From the UHGV virus genome UHGV-0075856: a DNA stretch of 19,994 nucleotides; one strand, 5' to 3'. The translations under genes and the position numbers were made by a program. The notes below the pieces were generated by a model. That model searched no databases. It was not told the DNA's origin and saw only the letters and a list, made by a program, of their open reading frames with translations. Below, piece after piece: positions 9,931 to 19,839 of this stretch (position 1 is the first letter of the stretch; each line of letters starts with the position of its first letter). Source of the stretch: a virus.

Positions 9931-10249
9931 CATGAAAAAAGAAACGCCCCATGGGTGTTGATGTGTCAATACTGTCTGTCAGACTACGGAAATTAACACC
10001 TTTTTCCCGCAACTCCTCTATAAGCGTGATAAGGTGTTTCATACTTCTGCCAAGCCTATCCAGCTTCCAGACAACCAGCGTATCTCCTTCTGATAACGTT
10101 CTGAGCAGCTTTTTCAAGCCTGGTCTGGCTGACTTTGTTCCGCTTATTTTATCTTCAAAAATCAGTTCACATCCTGCGCAGTTCAGTGCATTTCTTTGTA
10201 AATCTGTGTTTTGGTCATTTGTTGACACACGAATGTAGCCAATTTGCAT
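9812..10249 (-). CDS. Serine DNA invertase (Hin/Gin/Pin family), N-terminal catalytic fragment only; invertase-homologous codons span 10249 down to 9905, then the frame runs into antisense fibre sequence to a stop at 9812
   Basis: Translation MQIGYIRVSTNDQNTDLQRNAL…GDTLVVWKLDRLGRSMKHL…SLTDSIDTSTPMGRFFFHVMGALAEME is the conserved invertase catalytic domain (active-site Ser in YIRVSTNDQ) and then becomes unrelated (GNQERSEYWS…). ATG at 10247-10249 with AAGAGG RBS; the track's TTG at 10258 is 3 codons upstream. HTH domain is absent here. Confidence 0.85.
   Translation of the reverse strand: MQIGYIRVSTNDQNTDLQRNALNCAGCELIFEDKISGTKSARPGLKKLLRTLSEGDTLVVWKLDRLGRSMKHLITLIEELREKGVNFRSLTDSIDTSTPMGRFFFHVMGALAEMEGNQERSEYWSYQEWRVQHLSMQLTRHDQHL
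9893..9918. other. Hybrid serine-invertase crossover site: hix/gix-like left half-site TTCTTGATTACC, central TT (9905-9906), right half CCATTTCTGCTA derived from inside the invertase ORF
   Basis: Left half matches 10/12 to the hixL half-site TTCTTGAAAACC as I recall it. Right half does not match the consensus and is the reverse complement of invertase codons about 114-118. The central dinucleotide coincides with the point where both gene fusions become in-frame. Confidence 0.6.
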
Positions 10250-10302
10250 GAAAAACAACCTCTTTGTTTAGTTAAAAATACATCGTTGGTATAGGTAGGG
10301 AT

Positions 10303-10330
10303 TAAGACTAAAACGTTGGTTTGGGGGAAG
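10303..10330. other. Invertase crossover site at the start of the Sv cassette (AAGACTAAAACG-TT-GGTTTGGGGGAA), adjacent to the invertase promoter region
   Basis: Half-sites resemble hix/gix (…AAAAC-N2-GGTTT…). Right half is identical to the fibre half of the reconstructed Sc junction site. Lies about 60 bp upstream of the invertase start on the opposite strand. Confidence 0.55.
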
Positions 10331-10530
10331 GCTCTGCACTGCCTGTTGGTGTGCCCGTTCCGTGGCCCTTAGAAACACCACCAACGGGCTGGCTAAAATG
10401 CAATGGTGCAGCATTTTCTTCTGAAATGTATCCCAAACTGGCAAAGGCCTACCCCACCAATAAATTACCGGATTTACGCGGTGAGTTTATCCGTGGTTGG
10501 GATGATGGGCGAGGTGTGGATGCGGGAAGG
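10316..10530 (+). repeat. Left inverted repeat of the invertible fibre cassette (conserved 5' part of Sv), about 200 bp, about 90% identical to the inverted copy at 11685-11898
   Basis: Direct comparison: ACGTTGGTTTGGGGGAAGGCTCTGCACTGCCTGTTGGTGTGCCCGTTCCGTGGCC here versus the reverse complement of 11843-11898 (CACGTTGGTTTGGGGGAAGGCTCAGCATTGCCTGTTGGCGTACCTGTTCCGTGGCC). Encoded peptides are near-identical for about 62 aa. Confidence 0.85.
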
Positions 10531-10779
10531 GTCATCTTAAGCATACAGGGGTGGTTAACAGGAAGTCATTATCATAATATTCGGTCATGGGACGCGTGGG
10601 ATAACACGGTATTGGTGCCAAATGACAGAGGGGGGGATAGTCTGTTGTCGACAGATAACGCCGTCCGGCAAGGAGCGATTAATGGTAAATTTACCAGTCA
10701 ATACAGAACGGAGTTATCTGGGGGGAATGAAACCCGCCCACGTAACATTGCCTTCAATTATATTGTGAGAGCAGCATAA
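10321..10779 (+). CDS. Tail-fibre variable C-terminal cassette Sv (receptor-binding part); not fused to Sc in this orientation (in-frame TAA two codons upstream), so the TTG 'start' in the ORF track is an artefact
   Basis: Peptide GEGSALPVGVPVPWP…GWLKCNGAAF…ETRPRNIAFNYIVRAA is paralogous to the - strand cassette. The frame opens exactly at the crossover site and is immediately followed by a fibre-assembly gene. Confidence 0.7.
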   Translation: MGEGSALPVGVPVPWPLETPPTGWLKCNGAAFSSEMYPKLAKAYPTNKLPDLRGEFIRGWDDGRGVDAGRVILSIQGWLTGSHYHNIRSWDAWDNTVLVPNDRGGDSLLSTDNAVRQGAINGKFTSQYRTELSGGNETRPRNIAFNYIVRAA

Positions 10780-13229: not shown

Positions 13230-13669
13230 TTGGCTGGGGTGTATGCGTTCTTGCGTTAGCCTTAGCCGATCGCTATTTGCTAAAACGCAAGGACATCACG
13301 CATTTAGAACTTGGTGATGTGGAAATTAAACCGGGTTTCATCCGGGTGCCGTTCAAATACCGGTCTAAATTCCCGTTTTTGCGCGGCGCAACGGTCAGAT
13401 ATTGGATCCGCGATGTTCAGAAGCCGACGACAGTGATTGAAGGCGAACAACGTTGTTTGACGTCGGCTGAACAGGGCGAAAACAGTGAATGGTTGTACAT
13501 ACCCACTGAATATATGGGTAAAGGAGAGCGACTGTGGCATTTCAACGTCATGGTTACGCATGGCGACTCGTTCATTAACCCGTTGTATCGGATTTTCCCT
13601 GTTACTCAGCAAATCCGCAGAAGTTACGTAATAAATCTCGCACAGGATGTGTCAGATGACGAAAAATAA
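13226..13669 (+). CDS. lydB: Antiholin / holin-associated protein (P1 LydB-like, 147 aa)
   Basis: ATGA overlap with the holin stop (translational coupling). N-terminal hydrophobic segment (GWGVCVLALALA). Size and synteny match P1 lydB as recalled; no catalytic motif seen. Confidence 0.5.
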   Translation: MIGWGVCVLALALADRYLLKRKDITHLELGDVEIKPGFIRVPFKYRSKFPFLRGATVRYWIRDVQKPTTVIEGEQRCLTSAEQGENSEWLYIPTEYMGKGERLWHFNVMVTHGDSFINPLYRIFPVTQQIRRSYVINLAQDVSDDEK

Positions 13670-14258
13670 GTATGCAACGGTCGATTTTGACCAGGTTAAT
13701 GAAAAGGGGCTGAAATCCCTTATCGCGGCGATCAATAAAACCGGTGTTACGGTAATTGAGGTTGACTCCAGCAACCGCGCAACAACGAAAGATGGCGTTA
13801 AAGTTAAAACCGCAAAGCTGGTTCTTAACGACGGACAAATTCTTGCCATACAGGTAAACGATACTGGCGATATATCGTCTGTGAGGCTGAATGGAAAAGC
13901 TATTCCTAACGCTCAGTCGCCGGATATCAAGACGCTTGGTACCGTCATGGGGCAAGCGGCCCGCAAAAACTCCGCAAAATTCCAGAAATCACTGATCGCC
14001 AAAGCGAAACGTGTTGCCAATCCGGTAGACAAGAAACCGGCAGTAAAATCCAACTTTCAGCGCCTGCAAGAGGCAAAACAGCGGAATGCTCAGGTGGTTG
14101 CCGCTTATAAATCAGCGCAGAACTCGGTGTCTTTCAATCAACAGCAGATCACTGATTTGCGGGCGAAGCTGGATAAGGAGACAGGCCGACTCAATAACGA
14201 AAAGGCCCGAAATGGCGAACTCAAACGCCGTCTTAAGCAACTGAAAGCAGGAAATTAA
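13656..14258 (+). CDS. hdf: Hdf-like protein (DarA-homologous fragment; head-associated antirestriction/morphogenesis component), about 200 aa
   Basis: ATG at 13656 with AGGA RBS (track ORF starts at 13647). Shares a segment with the next ORF (…ARKNSAKFQKSLIAKAK… versus …AEKNSAKFQRAQKKKK…, and AAAAACTC[C/G]GCAAAATTCCAG at the nucleotide level). Both have a coiled-coil-like stretch. Confidence 0.55.
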   Translation: MTKNKYATVDFDQVNEKGLKSLIAAINKTGVTVIEVDSSNRATTKDGVKVKTAKLVLNDGQILAIQVNDTGDISSVRLNGKAIPNAQSPDIKTLGTVMGQAARKNSAKFQKSLIAKAKRVANPVDKKPAVKSNFQRLQEAKQRNAQVVAAYKSAQNSVSFNQQQITDLRAKLDKETGRLNNEKARNGELKRRLKQLKAGN

Positions 14259-14259
14259 C

Positions 14260-16179
14260 ATGGAACAGTTCAATATCAATAAAGGGGTGACGATCAAGCC
14301 TGGGCTTGACGTGCTTCCCCCGCCAGTGACTGATGATGAATATCGCGCATTAATGGCCGGTGAGGACCGCTATCTGATGACGGAATCCAACACCCTGGAG
14401 GAAATCGAGGCTACGTTCTTCTATGACACGCCGATCCACTGGTGTGCTACGGATTTACTGGAGGCGATTAGTTCTACTCGTTTGCAGTTACACCGGACCA
14501 TGCAGGCATTTGTCCGGGCATTAAACCAGAAGCTGAATGGTACCGGAATCTCTGCGGGGAGTGATAAAACGGGGGATGTGGCCCAGAACGGTGCACGCGC
14601 GATCGGCGGGGCTGAAATTGGCCGGGCACGTAACGTTAACGGGCTGCCGGTCCTGCCAGCCATTATTCCGCTCAGTGATGGTCAGACTATCAGCATTCTG
14701 TTTCATAGCCCGACAGCGGAAAACCGGATCACCAATAGCGATACGCTGATTGCTTTCCAGTTCTTACTGAATAAAAAAGACGTTACTCATACCGTTGCTC
14801 CGATGAGTGGACGTGATATGACGCTGGCGCAGGTCACCATGAAACTTGCCAACCTTGCAGAGAAAAACTCGGCAAAATTCCAGCGTGCGCAGAAGAAGAA
14901 AAAAGCCCTGGTTGATGAAATAACCCAACTACAGGCTGACAGTGACCAGAAAGAGGATGCCATGAGCGACCTCGCGGATCAGGTGGCAGCGGTAGAAGGG
15001 CAGAAGGTAGATCTGGAGCAGAAAATTAACGCTGTTGCATCGGAAGCGGATTCTCTTTATGAAGAGAATGAGCGTTTGCAGACGGAGATTGATCAGCTCA
15101 ATCGAACTGGTGGGCGCGAAACCATTGCTCCTGCGGGGATGACTGGTGGACACTCTCGCGCGATGACGGATCGCCTTGCAAGTATCAAAAATCGTATGCA
15201 TATGAACGGGGAAGTGACGCTCAGTAATGGTGCATCAATGAAGCAATTCATTGAGGACGGTGAAGGGTATATCCAGTTAACCGATTCGGATGGCAGCGTG
15301 TACATGATCAAGGCTAAATCCATACAGGGTGTGGACATGGCAGATGCGATCGGCAAGCTGTTTAAAGCCTATAAAGCGGGTAATGTATCGGAATACCTGG
15401 TCCAACCAGAAGAACATAAACCGGAAAACGTCGAACCTGAACCAGCGGAGGATACCGGTAGCTCTTCGCCTGAACCAGAAGTCTCTGTAGGTGCATATCG
15501 ATATGCCCTGCAAATGCGTCCGGCGGCCCCTGGCGCAATACCTGAAGGTAACAAAGCAATTCTGCCGCGCCCTGATGAAGGTGACCCGTATTATGAATAT
15601 GCACGCTACGGCATTGCTACTTACGATACCCCGCTTTCTGATCAGCAAATGAGTGAGTACGACCTGAAGTTATTGCCTCGCGAGGATTCTTTCGACTTCT
15701 TGGCGAAGACACTTACTAATGGTCCGTTTGGCAAATATGCACAAAAAGCTCTGGAGCTGGCCACCAGCTCACCAGACGAGTTCCGCGTAATGCTGAAAAC
15801 TCAGTTTCAAAAAACTTTCCCCAATATTGCGTATCCGGGGGGCGCTGGCACCGAAAAAATGGTGCAGAGCATGATCAATGCATTGCAGGCCGAAGTCGGT
15901 GAGATTACTCAGCCAGAACCTGCCCCGGCACAGCCTGATGAAACGGTTAGCGAAGCAGATGCAGAGGCTAATAAAGCCATTGAATATCTCAATAACGTGA
16001 TGGATATGCAAAGCACTGACATGGCGGAGATCCGTAACGCCCGGGGCAATGTCCGGGAAGCGATTGCAGCCCTTCAGGCTGCCGGGCGTTTTGAGGAAAA
16101 CGAAGAGCTGGTTAATGGCGCTGCTCGCCACCTGGCTGATCTGCTGGTAGCAATCCAGAAAGCGGGGGTAGCGGCATGA
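14260..16179 (+). CDS. darA: DarA-like antirestriction/capsid-internal protein (639 aa)
   Basis: 639-aa ORF starting 2 nt after the previous stop. Internal homology to the preceding Hdf-like ORF, a heptad-rich coiled coil (…DEITQLQADSDQKEDAMSDLADQVAAVEGQKVDLEQKINAV…) and an acidic Pro/Glu-rich linker. Size and order (holin, antiholin, hdf, darA, ddrA, ddrB) match the P1 darA operon as I recall it. Confidence 0.6.
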   Translation: MEQFNINKGVTIKPGLDVLPPPVTDDEYRALMAGEDRYLMTESNTLEEIEATFFYDTPIHWCATDLLEAISSTRLQLHRTMQAFVRALNQKLNGTGISAGSDKTGDVAQNGARAIGGAEIGRARNVNGLPVLPAIIPLSDGQTISILFHSPTAENRITNSDTLIAFQFLLNKKDVTHTVAPMSGRDMTLAQVTMKLANLAEKNSAKFQRAQKKKKALVDEITQLQADSDQKEDAMSDLADQVAAVEGQKVDLEQKINAVASEADSLYEENERLQTEIDQLNRTGGRETIAPAGMTGGHSRAMTDRLASIKNRMHMNGEVTLSNGASMKQFIEDGEGYIQLTDSDGSVYMIKAKSIQGVDMADAIGKLFKAYKAGNVSEYLVQPEEHKPENVEPEPAEDTGSSSPEPEVSVGAYRYALQMRPAAPGAIPEGNKAILPRPDEGDPYYEYARYGIATYDTPLSDQQMSEYDLKLLPREDSFDFLAKTLTNGPFGKYAQKALELATSSPDEFRVMLKTQFQKTFPNIAYPGGAGTEKMVQSMINALQAEVGEITQPEPAPAQPDETVSEADAEANKAIEYLNNVMDMQSTDMAEIRNARGNVREAIAALQAAGRFEENEELVNGAARHLADLLVAIQKAGVAA

Positions 16180-16541
16180 CACTATCAGCTATTGAGTTAA
16201 TGGATCTCAGCGATAAGTTGGATGCTCTGATGTCCAAAGCGGCTACCGCGAGTGGCATGGAGTTGCTGGATATCAGCGATGAAATCGACCAGATCATGCA
16301 ACAGATGGGGTACGGCGCGTCCGGAGGTGGTAGTGGCGAGGAAAAACAACCTTCGGAACATGATGGTGTGCCAAAACTGGTTGCTGATTTCCTGGCTGAT
16401 AAATTCGTCGATCAGAGCACCGATGCATTTATCGGTACCTTGCAGGATTTGAGTCAATATGTTGGCACATACATCGACCTGGACCAGGTTAAACAGCACA
16501 CGGCGGCATGGATAGCCGCCAACATTAAAGAGGCAGCATAA
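16176..16541 (+). CDS. ddrA: DdrA-like small acidic protein of the Dar operon (121 aa)
   Basis: ATGA overlap with the darA-like stop; acidic; assignment by synteny and size. Confidence 0.5.
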   Translation: MTLSAIELMDLSDKLDALMSKAATASGMELLDISDEIDQIMQQMGYGASGGGSGEEKQPSEHDGVPKLVADFLADKFVDQSTDAFIGTLQDLSQYVGTYIDLDQVKQHTAAWIAANIKEAA

Positions 16542-16553
16542 GGCGTAACAGGG

Positions 16554-19541
16554 ATGAGCTTAAGCGATCAGGTGGTAATGGCCACCAGCATAGAAACGCT
16601 GATCGAGCTGCTAAAGAACTTGCCCGATTATGGGCGGGTTTCGTATGTGGTGACAGCGAAGGGAGACGAGGTAAAAACAGCGTTTGATATCGTCGATGCC
16701 TCAGCTCTTTTGGTATCCAATACTCTGGATGGGAAAATTAATCCTGACTATCCCCAGGAACTTCAACCGCGCGACCGGACCCGCGCATCCAGCCTTCTTC
16801 AGGTTAACCAGATATCCAAGGATTTGCGGCCTGCTCAGCTTACCGATTCCGGTCTATCCAGCCATGGCGCGCCGATAATTGGTGAGGACAATGCCGTTGA
16901 GTCAGGTAATGGACGGACCATGGGGATCATTAAAGCCTATCAGGACGGCAATGCGGATCGGTATCGTGAGTACCTGATTGATCATGCGACCGAATTCGGC
17001 ATACGACCTGAAAAGGTTGAATCAATGACGGCTCCGGTACTGGTGCGCCGCCGGTTAACTAAGGTTGACCGCGTTCAGTTTGCCAAGGACTCAAATATTT
17101 CTGATCTTCAGGAAATGGCAGCCAGTGAAAAGGCTTTTGTTGATGCCGACAGCATAACACCGGCGATGATGGCGCTTTTTAACCCGTCAGAAAGCGGAGA
17201 TCTGCTTAGCCGCAGTAATGACACGTTTATTCGCGGATTTATGACGCAAGTTGGTGCCACACAGGCGGCTGGCCTTGTAACTGAAGATGGGCGACCAACA
17301 CGGCAACTTGTAGACCGTATACAAAACGCGATCTTTGCCAAGGCATATAAGGATGCGCGCCTGGTAAGGATGGTTGCAGAAGAACCTGATCCGGATATGC
17401 GTAATGTTCTGACGGCGCTTAATGCGGCAGCCAATGATTTTGTCCAGATGCAGGCTTTGTCAGGAGAAGCGCACAAGCAGGCTGTGACAACTATTGTTGA
17501 TGGCATTGAGACAGCGGATAGCCTCGATAAAAAGGCGCTGGCGGCATTGAAAGATGCGGTAGACCTGGTAAGGCAATCGAAGGAGTCAGGCCAGCATATT
17601 ACCGATGTTATTGCTCAGGGGGATATGTTCAGCGAAACGGCCCCGGAAGTGAAAGCACTCGCGTTGTTCATCGTCGCGAATAACCGTAGCGCGAAGCGTA
17701 TGGCCACCGCCTTTAAGTTGATGGCGCAACGTATCAATGATGAGTTACAGCACCAGGGCCAGGCGCTCGGGGATATGTTTGGCGGCGGCGATGTGTCGTT
17801 ACAGGATATCCTTCGCCAGGTGTCTCAGGAACTGGAAAACGAAGGCATGCAAGGGATATCCGGCGGTCTTTTCGAGTCCGTTTCCGGCGGTAGTTACAAC
17901 GGTGTTGCTCCATATACCAGCTTGCTATTACATCGGGCATCCGGCATCAAAGACATTATTCATCTGATCAGGCTGCTATCCCGCACCGATCCCCAGGATG
18001 AGCAGCTTGTACAAGTGCTTGCGCATTTTGTCCGAATGCCTGTTGCCGACGTAAAAAAATGGTGCCGATTATTCGGTATCAGCAATTCGTTACTTCGCGG
18101 ATTGTTAAATCACGCATCCTCCCTTGGGCGCGACGGCTTTGATGAGATAGCGCAGGCGATAAAAAACGGAGATATGCCACCAGCTATTGACTGGTTTTCC
18201 ATTCGCCCAACCAGGGTGAAAGCATTCCTTAGCGCGGCGCATTCGGCATCACCATTGGCAGAAATGGTTCAGAGGTTGTCGCTCATATTCACAGACCATA
18301 CCGCGTTGGGTGATCTGACTCTGGACGAGATGAAAGAAGCCTCCATTCAGTGGGCCGATCAACAAAATGAGGTTAACTCTGACTTCTTGCCAGCATTCAG
18401 GAAGGCCGTTAGTAAAGTGGATGATGCCCGTGGAATTCTGAAGGCATTTAAGGCATTGCAAAGTCGGGTTAATAAACATGTCGGTGATATCGATGGGGTA
18501 ACGGCGGAAGGCAGGGATATCCTTAAAGAGCACGGCATAACGCCAGAGTTTATTGATGAGATCAGGACGGATATGCAGCGTGAGGTCGTATCGTCCCTGC
18601 AAATCGTAGCCAGAGCGTTGGCGGATGCTAATCCGAAGAGTGCGGCCATTGTTAACCGGGTTATTGGTGATATTGAAGCATCGGAGGGCATGGGGGCGCT
18701 GAAACTCTTCCTTTCGCGAGCGTTTAATCCTAACGGCAATATTCTCCCCGGCATTATTTGTGAGGCTAAAAAGTATGTCAGCGAAGAAGAACTTGAGCAT
18801 CTTGACCAACTACTTAAGCGATTCTCATATAACCCGCAGACACGCTGGCAAATGAATCAGCGAAGTATGGGTTCGGTCCACGAGAAAGTGTTATCTGCCA
18901 TGAACAGTGCGATCGCCAACTCATCCGTATCTGAAGAAAAAGCTCTTGAGTGGGCCGACTCTTTTATCACGGAAGAAGTGGAAGAAGCCCGCGCTGGACA
19001 GAATGGTGGGATAGACCTGCGCAAGGAACTTGCTGATATTTATCGCCTGACCGGCGGTAAAATTTCGACCTTATCAAAGGTGGTTCACCACCAGGGAAGG
19101 GCATATGCAAATCTAAATGGTGTTGTTGCTGTCAATTTGAACGATGAAAATGCAAGTGCACTGTGGCACGAGCTGGGTCATCATCTTGAGTACAGTAACC
19201 CTGGTTTGTTAGAGAAAGCCCGGTCATTCCTGAAGGCCAATGTTGAAGGGGATAAGCCATCTTTCGTTAATATCGGTGGGCGTGGCAAGCCTGAATGGTG
19301 CTTCAGATCTCGATTGAGTAATATTTATATGGCGAAGGTATACCCGCCAGCCTCAGTAAGTAACACCGGGAAAATTCGGCAGAAATCACCGACTATTTCC
19401 AAAACGTCAGCAACGGAAGTATTCTCTATGGCTCTTCAGTTGTATCATGACAAAGAGGCCGCTGCCGCATCACTGATGAATGGTGACGGATTGCTGGAAC
19501 TGTTATTAGGTGTGGCAAAGGAGCTAAATAATGCAGATTAA
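16554..19541 (+). CDS. ddrB: DdrB-like large Dar-operon protein (995 aa) with an HExxH zinc-metallopeptidase-like motif (WHELGHHLEY at about 19163-19192)
   Basis: 995-aa ORF; motif read directly; assignment by synteny and size. Confidence 0.5.
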   Translation: MSLSDQVVMATSIETLIELLKNLPDYGRVSYVVTAKGDEVKTAFDIVDASALLVSNTLDGKINPDYPQELQPRDRTRASSLLQVNQISKDLRPAQLTDSGLSSHGAPIIGEDNAVESGNGRTMGIIKAYQDGNADRYREYLIDHATEFGIRPEKVESMTAPVLVRRRLTKVDRVQFAKDSNISDLQEMAASEKAFVDADSITPAMMALFNPSESGDLLSRSNDTFIRGFMTQVGATQAAGLVTEDGRPTRQLVDRIQNAIFAKAYKDARLVRMVAEEPDPDMRNVLTALNAAANDFVQMQALSGEAHKQAVTTIVDGIETADSLDKKALAALKDAVDLVRQSKESGQHITDVIAQGDMFSETAPEVKALALFIVANNRSAKRMATAFKLMAQRINDELQHQGQALGDMFGGGDVSLQDILRQVSQELENEGMQGISGGLFESVSGGSYNGVAPYTSLLLHRASGIKDIIHLIRLLSRTDPQDEQLVQVLAHFVRMPVADVKKWCRLFGISNSLLRGLLNHASSLGRDGFDEIAQAIKNGDMPPAIDWFSIRPTRVKAFLSAAHSASPLAEMVQRLSLIFTDHTALGDLTLDEMKEASIQWADQQNEVNSDFLPAFRKAVSKVDDARGILKAFKALQSRVNKHVGDIDGVTAEGRDILKEHGITPEFIDEIRTDMQREVVSSLQIVARALADANPKSAAIVNRVIGDIEASEGMGALKLFLSRAFNPNGNILPGIICEAKKYVSEEELEHLDQLLKRFSYNPQTRWQMNQRSMGSVHEKVLSAMNSAIANSSVSEEKALEWADSFITEEVEEARAGQNGGIDLRKELADIYRLTGGKISTLSKVVHHQGRAYANLNGVVAVNLNDENASALWHELGHHLEYSNPGLLEKARSFLKANVEGDKPSFVNIGGRGKPEWCFRSRLSNIYMAKVYPPASVSNTGKIRQKSPTISKTSATEVFSMALQLYHDKEAAAASLMNGDGLLELLLGVAKELNNAD

Positions 19542-19839
19542 AATCGCAGCGCCATTAGGCGGAGATGCCATTATCGAATTTGATGATAATGAAGAAGTTT
19601 CCGGGCGTTTAAGCATTATCTCCGGTGACATTACCGAGGACATGATCACTGAAGCCATAGCTGGGGCAAATCCCAATAGCTATATGGGATTCGTTAACAC
19701 CCTTGATGCTCCCGTAAGTGATGTTCTCCGAACGCTGCATCTTTACGCTGGCTGGTTTGTTGATTGGCCATCTGTAGATGGTGGCGATGAGGACGACGAC
19801 GATGATTTTGGTAATCATGTAGACCAGATCGTATATTAA
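19531..19839 (+). CDS. Small acidic protein (102 aa) with poly-Asp/Glu C-terminal tail
   Basis: ATG overlaps the end of the ddrB-like gene; C-terminus …VDGGDEDDDDDFGNHVDQIVY. Confidence 0.45.
   Translation: MQIKIAAPLGGDAIIEFDDNEEVSGRLSIISGDITEDMITEAIAGANPNSYMGFVNTLDAPVSDVLRTLHLYAGWFVDWPSVDGGDEDDDDDFGNHVDQIVY

Follow-up and report, generated by a model that had tools for sequence, protein, structure and literature searches.

DdrB of bacteriophage P1 is a non-essential head protein that has been described as aiding the addition of DarB to the capsid. In the sequential loading of the Dar proteins DdrB follows Hdf, DarA and DdrA, and Dar protection acts only in cis. The P1 RefSeq record for ddrB reads 'unknown protein function; possible metallopeptidase', and the annotation of phage JL22 reads 'putative metallopeptidase'. 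Iyer, Burroughs, Anand, de Souza and Aravind (2017, PMC5512222) described a C-terminal zincin-like metallopeptidase (MPTase) in P1 DdrB with an HExxH motif and a downstream helix bearing a Glu, and they found this MPTase in phage-type proteins together with ddrB-ParB, MuF, InPase and DarA-N domains. Citing a processed form of DdrB of 76 kDa in virions, they suggested that the protein cleaves itself before it is packaged, and named processing inside the head, processing after injection and host targets as alternatives. The gene discussed here lies in a stretch of 19,994 nucleotides from the virus genome UHGV-0075856 (the window) and encodes a 995-residue protein that, by sequence comparison, is DdrB of a P1-like phage-plasmid. 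A preliminary description of the window held that this family is usually described without a catalytic assignment, which is mistaken, as all three sources above name a possible, putative or predicted metallopeptidase. The metallopeptidase domain of DdrB is therefore not new, having been predicted in the P1 annotation and in the 2017 paper, and the present analysis offers confirmation and detail of a public prediction rather than a new idea. It adds E955 and Y930 as the likely third ligand and the likely oxyanion tyrosine, residue-level conservation counts, an AlphaFold2 model, the nearest solved folds, and a stand-alone form of the domain of ~620 residues whose gene has DarA-like and DarB-like genes as direct neighbours. 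Should the domain prove active, one of the six components of the P1 Dar system would be an enzyme rather than a passive coat on the DNA.

The translation of 16554-19541 contains ...NGVVAVNLNDENASALWHELGHHLEYSNPG..., so the HExxH-like motif that had been reported in the C-terminal part of the protein is present, as HELGH. The segment WHELGHHLEY is encoded by nucleotides 19164-19193; the range first given for it, 19163-19192, contains the motif yet is shifted by one base from the codon register. HExxH occurs once in DdrB and arises in 2.8% of 20,000 composition-preserving shuffles of the protein, and the bare motif is only mildly unexpected and weak evidence alone. What carries it beyond chance is its conservation across homologues. 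A word-indexed homologue search with residues 701-995 found nothing beyond fragments of P1-like proteins and two partial proteins from Salmonella with 49-53% identity. An exhaustive HMMER search with the same query against 1.84 billion cluster representatives (E<=1e-3) returned 375 proteins, with matches centred on residues ~775-995. Conservation was counted in the 141 motif-covering representatives among the best 150 of these 375 matches, which have a median identity to DdrB of 27%. H872, E873 and H876 are each present in 141/141, and the conservation of HExxH on which the preliminary description had made its reading depend is thus found. The motif itself adds to the scores by which the homologues were selected, and the invariance count is partly biased by this ascertainment. 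Despite that bias, the numerous further conserved positions in the aligned sequences mark a real domain family. They include E914, present in 137/140 homologues, and E955, which lies in a conserved TEVxSMG block; R849, E879, Y925 and Y930 are listed with their counts in Table 1. An acidic residue at the position equivalent to E879 is also found in a phage-type MPTase clade described by Iyer et al. R849 is inferred to belong to the substrate or edge-strand region.

Residues 771-995 were modelled with AlphaFold2 from a 41-sequence alignment, with a mean predicted local distance difference test score (pLDDT) of 91.7 and a predicted template modelling score of 0.89. From the N-terminus, the model shows four helices and two beta-strands, then a long helix that carries HELGH and E879, another helix, short strands and the YxxxxY segment, with a further helix starting immediately after E955. 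As expected of a zincin, HELGH lies on an alpha-helix, a beta-sheet with an edge strand precedes this helix, and the overall fold is similar to solved zincins. In both the domain model and a full-length model, helix 956-962 opens at E955. By analogy with known zincins, E955 is likely the third metal ligand and Y930 is likely the oxyanion-stabilising tyrosine; E879 and E914, which are also conserved, may be alternative ligands. We infer that H872, H876 and E955 bind the metal, that E873 serves as the base and that Y930 is the oxyanion tyrosine. This arrangement resembles that of PPEP-3, where the ligands are H153, H157 and E197, the base is E154, and the oxyanion residue Y190 lies seven residues ahead of the Glu. 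In the DdrB family the mode of this Tyr-to-Glu spacing is 6, and the value of 25 in P1 is due to a 19-residue insertion predicted with low confidence.

The nearest solved folds to the domain model are anthrax lethal factor and the PPEPs; the fold comparison scores for Spartan, Wss1 and ArdC are 3.6, 3.4 and 3.3. Foldseek of the domain against the PDB gave no match below E 2, and searches of PDB sequences with phmmer and with profile hmmsearch yielded only noise. Sub-threshold Pfam matches among the 41 family members include Zincin_1, Reprolysin_3/4/5, M10, M57, M64, M78 and M91, and the proteins matched by structure in BFVD come from phages, some of them of MuF and polyvalent types. Residues ~771-995 very probably form a zincin-fold, peptidase-like domain, and this domain is probably catalytically active. 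PPEP-1/2/3 and lethal factor (MEROPS M34) and MtfA (M90) differ from it in several respects. Their sequence identity to the DdrB domain is 9-15%, no significant match to them was obtained with Pfam, PDB sequences or Foldseek, and a larger insertion separates the HExxH and Glu helices of the DdrB domain. They are also secreted bacterial proteins, whereas DdrB is a phage head protein. The relation of DdrB to M34 is one of resemblance and not of membership. With the polyvalent MPTases of Iyer et al. the case is different, as the protein and the domain are the same and nothing essential differs.

ArdC of R388/pSa (PF18818, MPTase-PolyVal; PDB 6sna) resembles DdrB in having a gluzincin-type HExxH domain at the C-terminus, and both proteins are delivered with invading DNA and tied to antirestriction. 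ArdC of R388 matches ArdC-N and, at 164.8 bits, PF18818. DdrB gave no match to PF18818 (gathering score 27.5 bits) as the full-length protein, as residues 701-995 or as residues 771-995, at E up to 1-10. When the DdrB family (141 sequences) was aligned with the ArdC metalloprotease family (74) by hhalign, the P value was 0.0046 and the probability only 7.7% over 50 columns, with the TGG, RAY and HExxH elements of 'ELxxF..TGG...RAY...L.HExxH' in register; the RAY in question is that of the R849 segment of DdrB and of the ArdC metalloprotease domain. This weak profile alignment is compatible with a distant common origin of the polyvalent MPTases, not with family membership. SprT/Spartan/Wss1 and ImmA/IrrE (M78) are likewise HExxH zincins linked to DNA transactions, and DdrB shows neither the third His of SprT shortly after HExxH nor a significant Peptidase_M78 match or an IrrE-like fold. 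Membership of the ArdC, SprT or ImmA family was rejected on the Pfam results and the fold comparison, and the affinities to these families named in the preliminary description find no support in the Pfam, profile and fold comparisons.

The functional argument drawn from ArdC fares no better. The metal ligands of ArdC are H201, H205 and E229. The E229A mutant still promotes conjugation into P. putida, and HhaI is not degraded by ArdC, so the analogy gives no support to proteolysis as an antirestriction step. For DdrB, proteolysis of restriction enzymes is further disfavoured by the cis-only nature of Dar protection, which weighs against a freely diffusing protease. Of the earlier reading, then, the zincin-type metallopeptidase is supported by the invariant residues, the confident model and the prior predictions, and proteolysis in antirestriction is not supported.

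In the preferred reading, the HELGH helix is the active-site helix of a gluzincin-kind zinc-metallopeptidase domain in a head-packaged Dar component, which would act by limited proteolysis on capsid-internal cargo and not by destruction of host enzymes. H872, H876 and E955 would hold the metal, E873 would activate the water and Y930 would stabilise the tetrahedral intermediate. The full-length AlphaFold2 model (pLDDT 70.8) suggests how such a domain might act in cis. In this model five regions precede the peptidase domain: the ParB-like domain, predicted with confidence; a helical region; residues ~437-590, which are poorly predicted; a helical module at residues ~590-710; and the linker at residues 712-767, where pLDDT is <50 at 712-738 and 756-767. 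A cut in this linker would free the N-terminal ParB-like module, and the computed mass of the resulting N-terminal fragment, ~77-80 kDa, is near that of the 76-kDa virion form, which such a cut could yield. The 76-kDa form and the ddrB phenotypes are known here second-hand, via citing papers. In trans, the domain might cut neighbouring Dar or polyvalent proteins (for instance DarA-like and DarB-like cargo) while the head is being assembled or when its contents are ejected. The poorly predicted middle of DdrB (17862-18323) has a pLDDT of 35-60 and is variable even among full-length DdrB-like proteins, in which the conserved parts are residues ~10-480 and 775-995.

The gene neighbourhoods of the homologues also bear on this role. 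The domain occurs in architectures of ddrB-ParB with MPTase, MuF with MPTase, and InPase with two ddrB-ParB and MPTase, so that, as in polyvalent MPTases broadly defined, it lies in or beside large multi-domain phage or conjugative proteins. A common homologue form is a protein of ~620-660 residues with the domain in the middle. In metagenome contigs the stand-alone peptidase gene follows genes for a 578-residue DarA_N protein and a 98-residue BubE protein and precedes a gene for a 1067-residue protein. A scan of viral contigs with the 41-sequence alignment (A1) found no loci below 98% identity. With a narrower alignment (A2), 21 genome loci were found, including Nitrosomonas, Pseudomonas, Propionivibrio, Uliginosibacterium, Luteimonas, Nevskia, Sphaerotilus and Acinetobacter; given the alignment used, they all belong to one clade, and generality beyond this clade is unproven. 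The match lies at ~10001-10645 in the full-flank loci of this set (L088-L108). A DarA-family gene is directly upstream of the peptidase gene in 17/19 distant prophage loci that have upstream sequence, the two exceptions being L099, with a short fragment only, and L096, with no DarA-family match. Hdf homologues are found further upstream in about ten loci. The upstream polyvalent proteins are InPase-DarA_N in L097, PBECR3-InPase-DarA_N-DarA_C in L102 and InPase-DarA_N-(LPD3)-ddrB-ParB in L103 and L105, and in L099 and L102 the downstream neighbour is a giant gene for a DarB-like methylase plus SNF2. The architectures of L103 and L105 indicate that the ParB-like domain can change partners: in P1 it is joined to the peptidase, in these loci to DarA, and the peptidase remains beside DarA-type cargo. 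As read from these gene orders, domain shuffling ties together DarA, the ParB-like domain, the peptidase and DarB.

The cassette in these distant proteobacterial prophage-like regions (L088-L108, and also L003-L005) comprises an hdf-like gene, a DarA_N polyvalent gene, sometimes BubE, the gene for the ~620-660-residue peptidase and a large last gene, which either contains DUF2958 or encodes a DarB-like methylase plus SNF2. The ddrB-ParB domain, DarA-fused in L103 and L105, is carried by a gene of its own further downstream in L104.

The linker-cut mass near 76 kDa, the cis-only action of Dar and the gene neighbourhoods together make limited proteolysis of capsid cargo the best-supported role. 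The head location of DdrB, the requirement for it in adding DarB to capsids, the sequential loading of the Dar proteins and the retention of the C-terminal segment in P1-like plasmids also speak for it. As a whole, an active-site helix serving capsid-cargo proteolysis is considered somewhat probable, and that the substrate is DdrB itself or co-packaged Dar cargo is proposed only tentatively. Several observations weigh against it. The known head cuts in P1, in the major capsid protein and in DarA, are attributed to the prohead protease Pro, and DdrB has (L/I)xE sites at residues 657-659, 667-669 and 735-737 that are possibly usable by Pro, so the 76-kDa form need not stem from the domain of DdrB itself. 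The linker is not conserved among full-length homologues, and no conserved cis-cleavage site was seen in it. Peptide coverage of DdrB in virion mass spectrometry was 59.5% over the 995 residues; about 84% coverage would be needed if only a 700-residue fragment were present, which is a weak hint of more than the N-terminal fragment, and the supplement of Gonzales 2022 holds no peptide map for DdrB. Family models are likewise silent: in Pfam searches with full DdrB and its C-terminal part ddrB-ParB was the sole match, with no model over the peptidase region, and NCBIfam and PADLOC gave no match to this region. A literature search found no experiments on metal binding or proteolysis by DdrB. It also found no report of a catalytic-dead DdrB mutant.

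Other explanations of the domain have been weighed. An injected effector protease, in which DdrB or its C-terminal fragment enters the cell and cleaves proteins of type I restriction-modification or BREX systems, maybe while tethered to the incoming DNA by the ParB-like domain, is unlikely. It agrees with the host-targeting named by Iyer et al. among the possible MPTase roles, with the trans-acting endopeptidases among which the nearest solved folds are found, and with the pairing of a DNA-binding-type domain and a metalloprotease, which recalls ArdC and Spartan. However, the cis-only protection speaks against a free protease, the reported DdrB phenotype is explained by failed DarB loading, no target in the host is known, for the ParB-like domain of DdrB the binding of DNA is only a prediction, and the results with ArdC, the only tested analogue, point the other way. 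DNA tethering would square a protease with cis-only protection. In its strongest form, a ParB-like module would sit on ejected P1 DNA and the zincin would cleave the type I restriction or BREX proteins that engage it; a milder variant would make the stand-alone peptidase a dedicated trans-acting maturation enzyme for DarA- and DarB-type capsid cargo across Proteobacteria. This pair of proposals is very unlikely on present grounds. If the DNA-tethered protease were real, it would explain the strictly cis protection by Dar and would give phages an equivalent of Spartan and other DNA-dependent proteases.

A zincin fold that does not cleave but binds peptides or acts as an adaptor in assembly, docking DdrB to DarA or Hdf or recruiting DarB, with catalysis dispensable for antirestriction, is also rather unlikely. 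In a pure binding module the H, E and H of the motif, the Glu of the third ligand and the Tyr are not expected to stay invariant among homologues of ~27% identity. Inactive domains of the lethal factor kind, such as lethal factor domain I, have lost HExxH, unlike the DdrB family. Finally, the frequency of HExxH in shuffles of the size and composition of DdrB, and the lack of any curated family model matching the region, would allow the motif to be a chance occurrence in a non-enzymatic helical protein; this was dismissed, and its probability is practically nil, as the 141/141 conservation, the confident domain model and the fold comparison effectively refute it. Limited proteolysis of capsid cargo remains the preferred role for the DdrB domain.

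Table 1. Features of ddrB and of its neighbours in the late darA operon (positions in the window)
Feature	Position	Strand	Basis or remarks
ddrB coding sequence	16554..19541	+	995 residues plus stop; DdrB of P1-like phage-plasmid; open reading frame list, translation, P1 comparison
ddrB-like ParB-superfamily domain, residues 36-167	16659..17054	+	Pfam PF18763, E 2.2e-39, 134.8 bits; pLDDT 80-93 in full-length model
Low-confidence linker, residues 712-767, just upstream of peptidase domain	18687..18854	+	Full-length AlphaFold2 model
Zincin-like (gluzincin-type) metallopeptidase domain, ~225 residues, 771-995	18864..19538	+
R849, Arg of the 'RAYAN' segment, nearly invariant; segment lies between the two beta-strands that precede the active-site helix	19098..19100	+	139/140
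Predicted active-site helix, residues 864-881	19143..19196	+	DSSP, full-length model; domain model helix 97-111 = residues 867-881
HELGH (H872, E873, H876), residues 872-876	19167..19181	+	Two predicted Zn ligands and general-base Glu; 141/141 conserved
E879, acidic residue three positions past second His (HExxHxxE)	19188..19190	+	Glu 140/141, Asp 1/141
Y925 to Y930 (YMAKVY; family consensus PYVGKxY)	19326..19343	+	Y925 140/140, Y930 138/140
TEVFSM, residues 954-959	19413..19430	+	E955 140/140, T954 128/140; E955 candidate third Zn ligand, start of 'glutamate helix'
hdf	13647-14258	+	Upstream gene, same late operon; P1 annotation
darA	14260-16179	+	Upstream gene, same late operon; P1 annotation, Pfam DarA_N and DarA_C
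ddrA	16176-16541	+	Upstream gene, same late operon; P1 annotation
hxr	19531-19839		Downstream gene of darA operon

The ddrB DNA of the window is 98.1% identical to that of phage P1 and 97.9-98.9% identical across all 19 matching phage records; 492 plasmid records, Escherichia for the most part, also match. At the protein level 982/995 residues are identical to P1 DdrB, and residues 841-995 are fully identical. The gene order of the late darA operon matches that of P1: lydA, lydB, hdf, darA, ddrA, ddrB, hxr. The start codon of hxr lies within the last 11 nucleotides of ddrB (overlap 19531-19541), and darA and ddrA overlap by 4 nucleotides (16176-16179); both overlaps are compatible with translational coupling along the operon. 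An antisense ATG open reading frame of 132 residues inside ddrB (17108-17506, minus strand) is iddB of the P1 annotation, where its function is given as unknown. DarA has LLE followed by Ala at residues 66-69 (LLE, residues 66-68, at 14455-14463). Cleavage between LLE and Ala fits the absence of residues 1-69 from the cryo-EM structure and a T4-gp21-like (L/I)xE rule for Pro. DdrB was considered as the protease that trims DarA and rejected, since the literature credits Pro and this site fits the missing residues.

Three P1-like DdrB cluster representatives appear to carry large internal deletions, of residues 360-405 (P0011), 198-654 (P0013) and 592-877 (P0014), the last of which loses the HExxH motif; these may be true alleles or artefacts of assembly. 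Of the P1-like plasmid records, 478 retain the peptidase-coding segment and 430 the N-terminal segment (>=80% coverage), and so the former is not decaying. The C-terminal segment (18864-19541) is present in about 48 more plasmid records than the N-terminal segment (16554-17231), and identity to the window of >=99% is found in 213/481 records for the former and 23/433 for the latter. This contrast in identity between the segments suggests mosaicism or recombination within ddrB.

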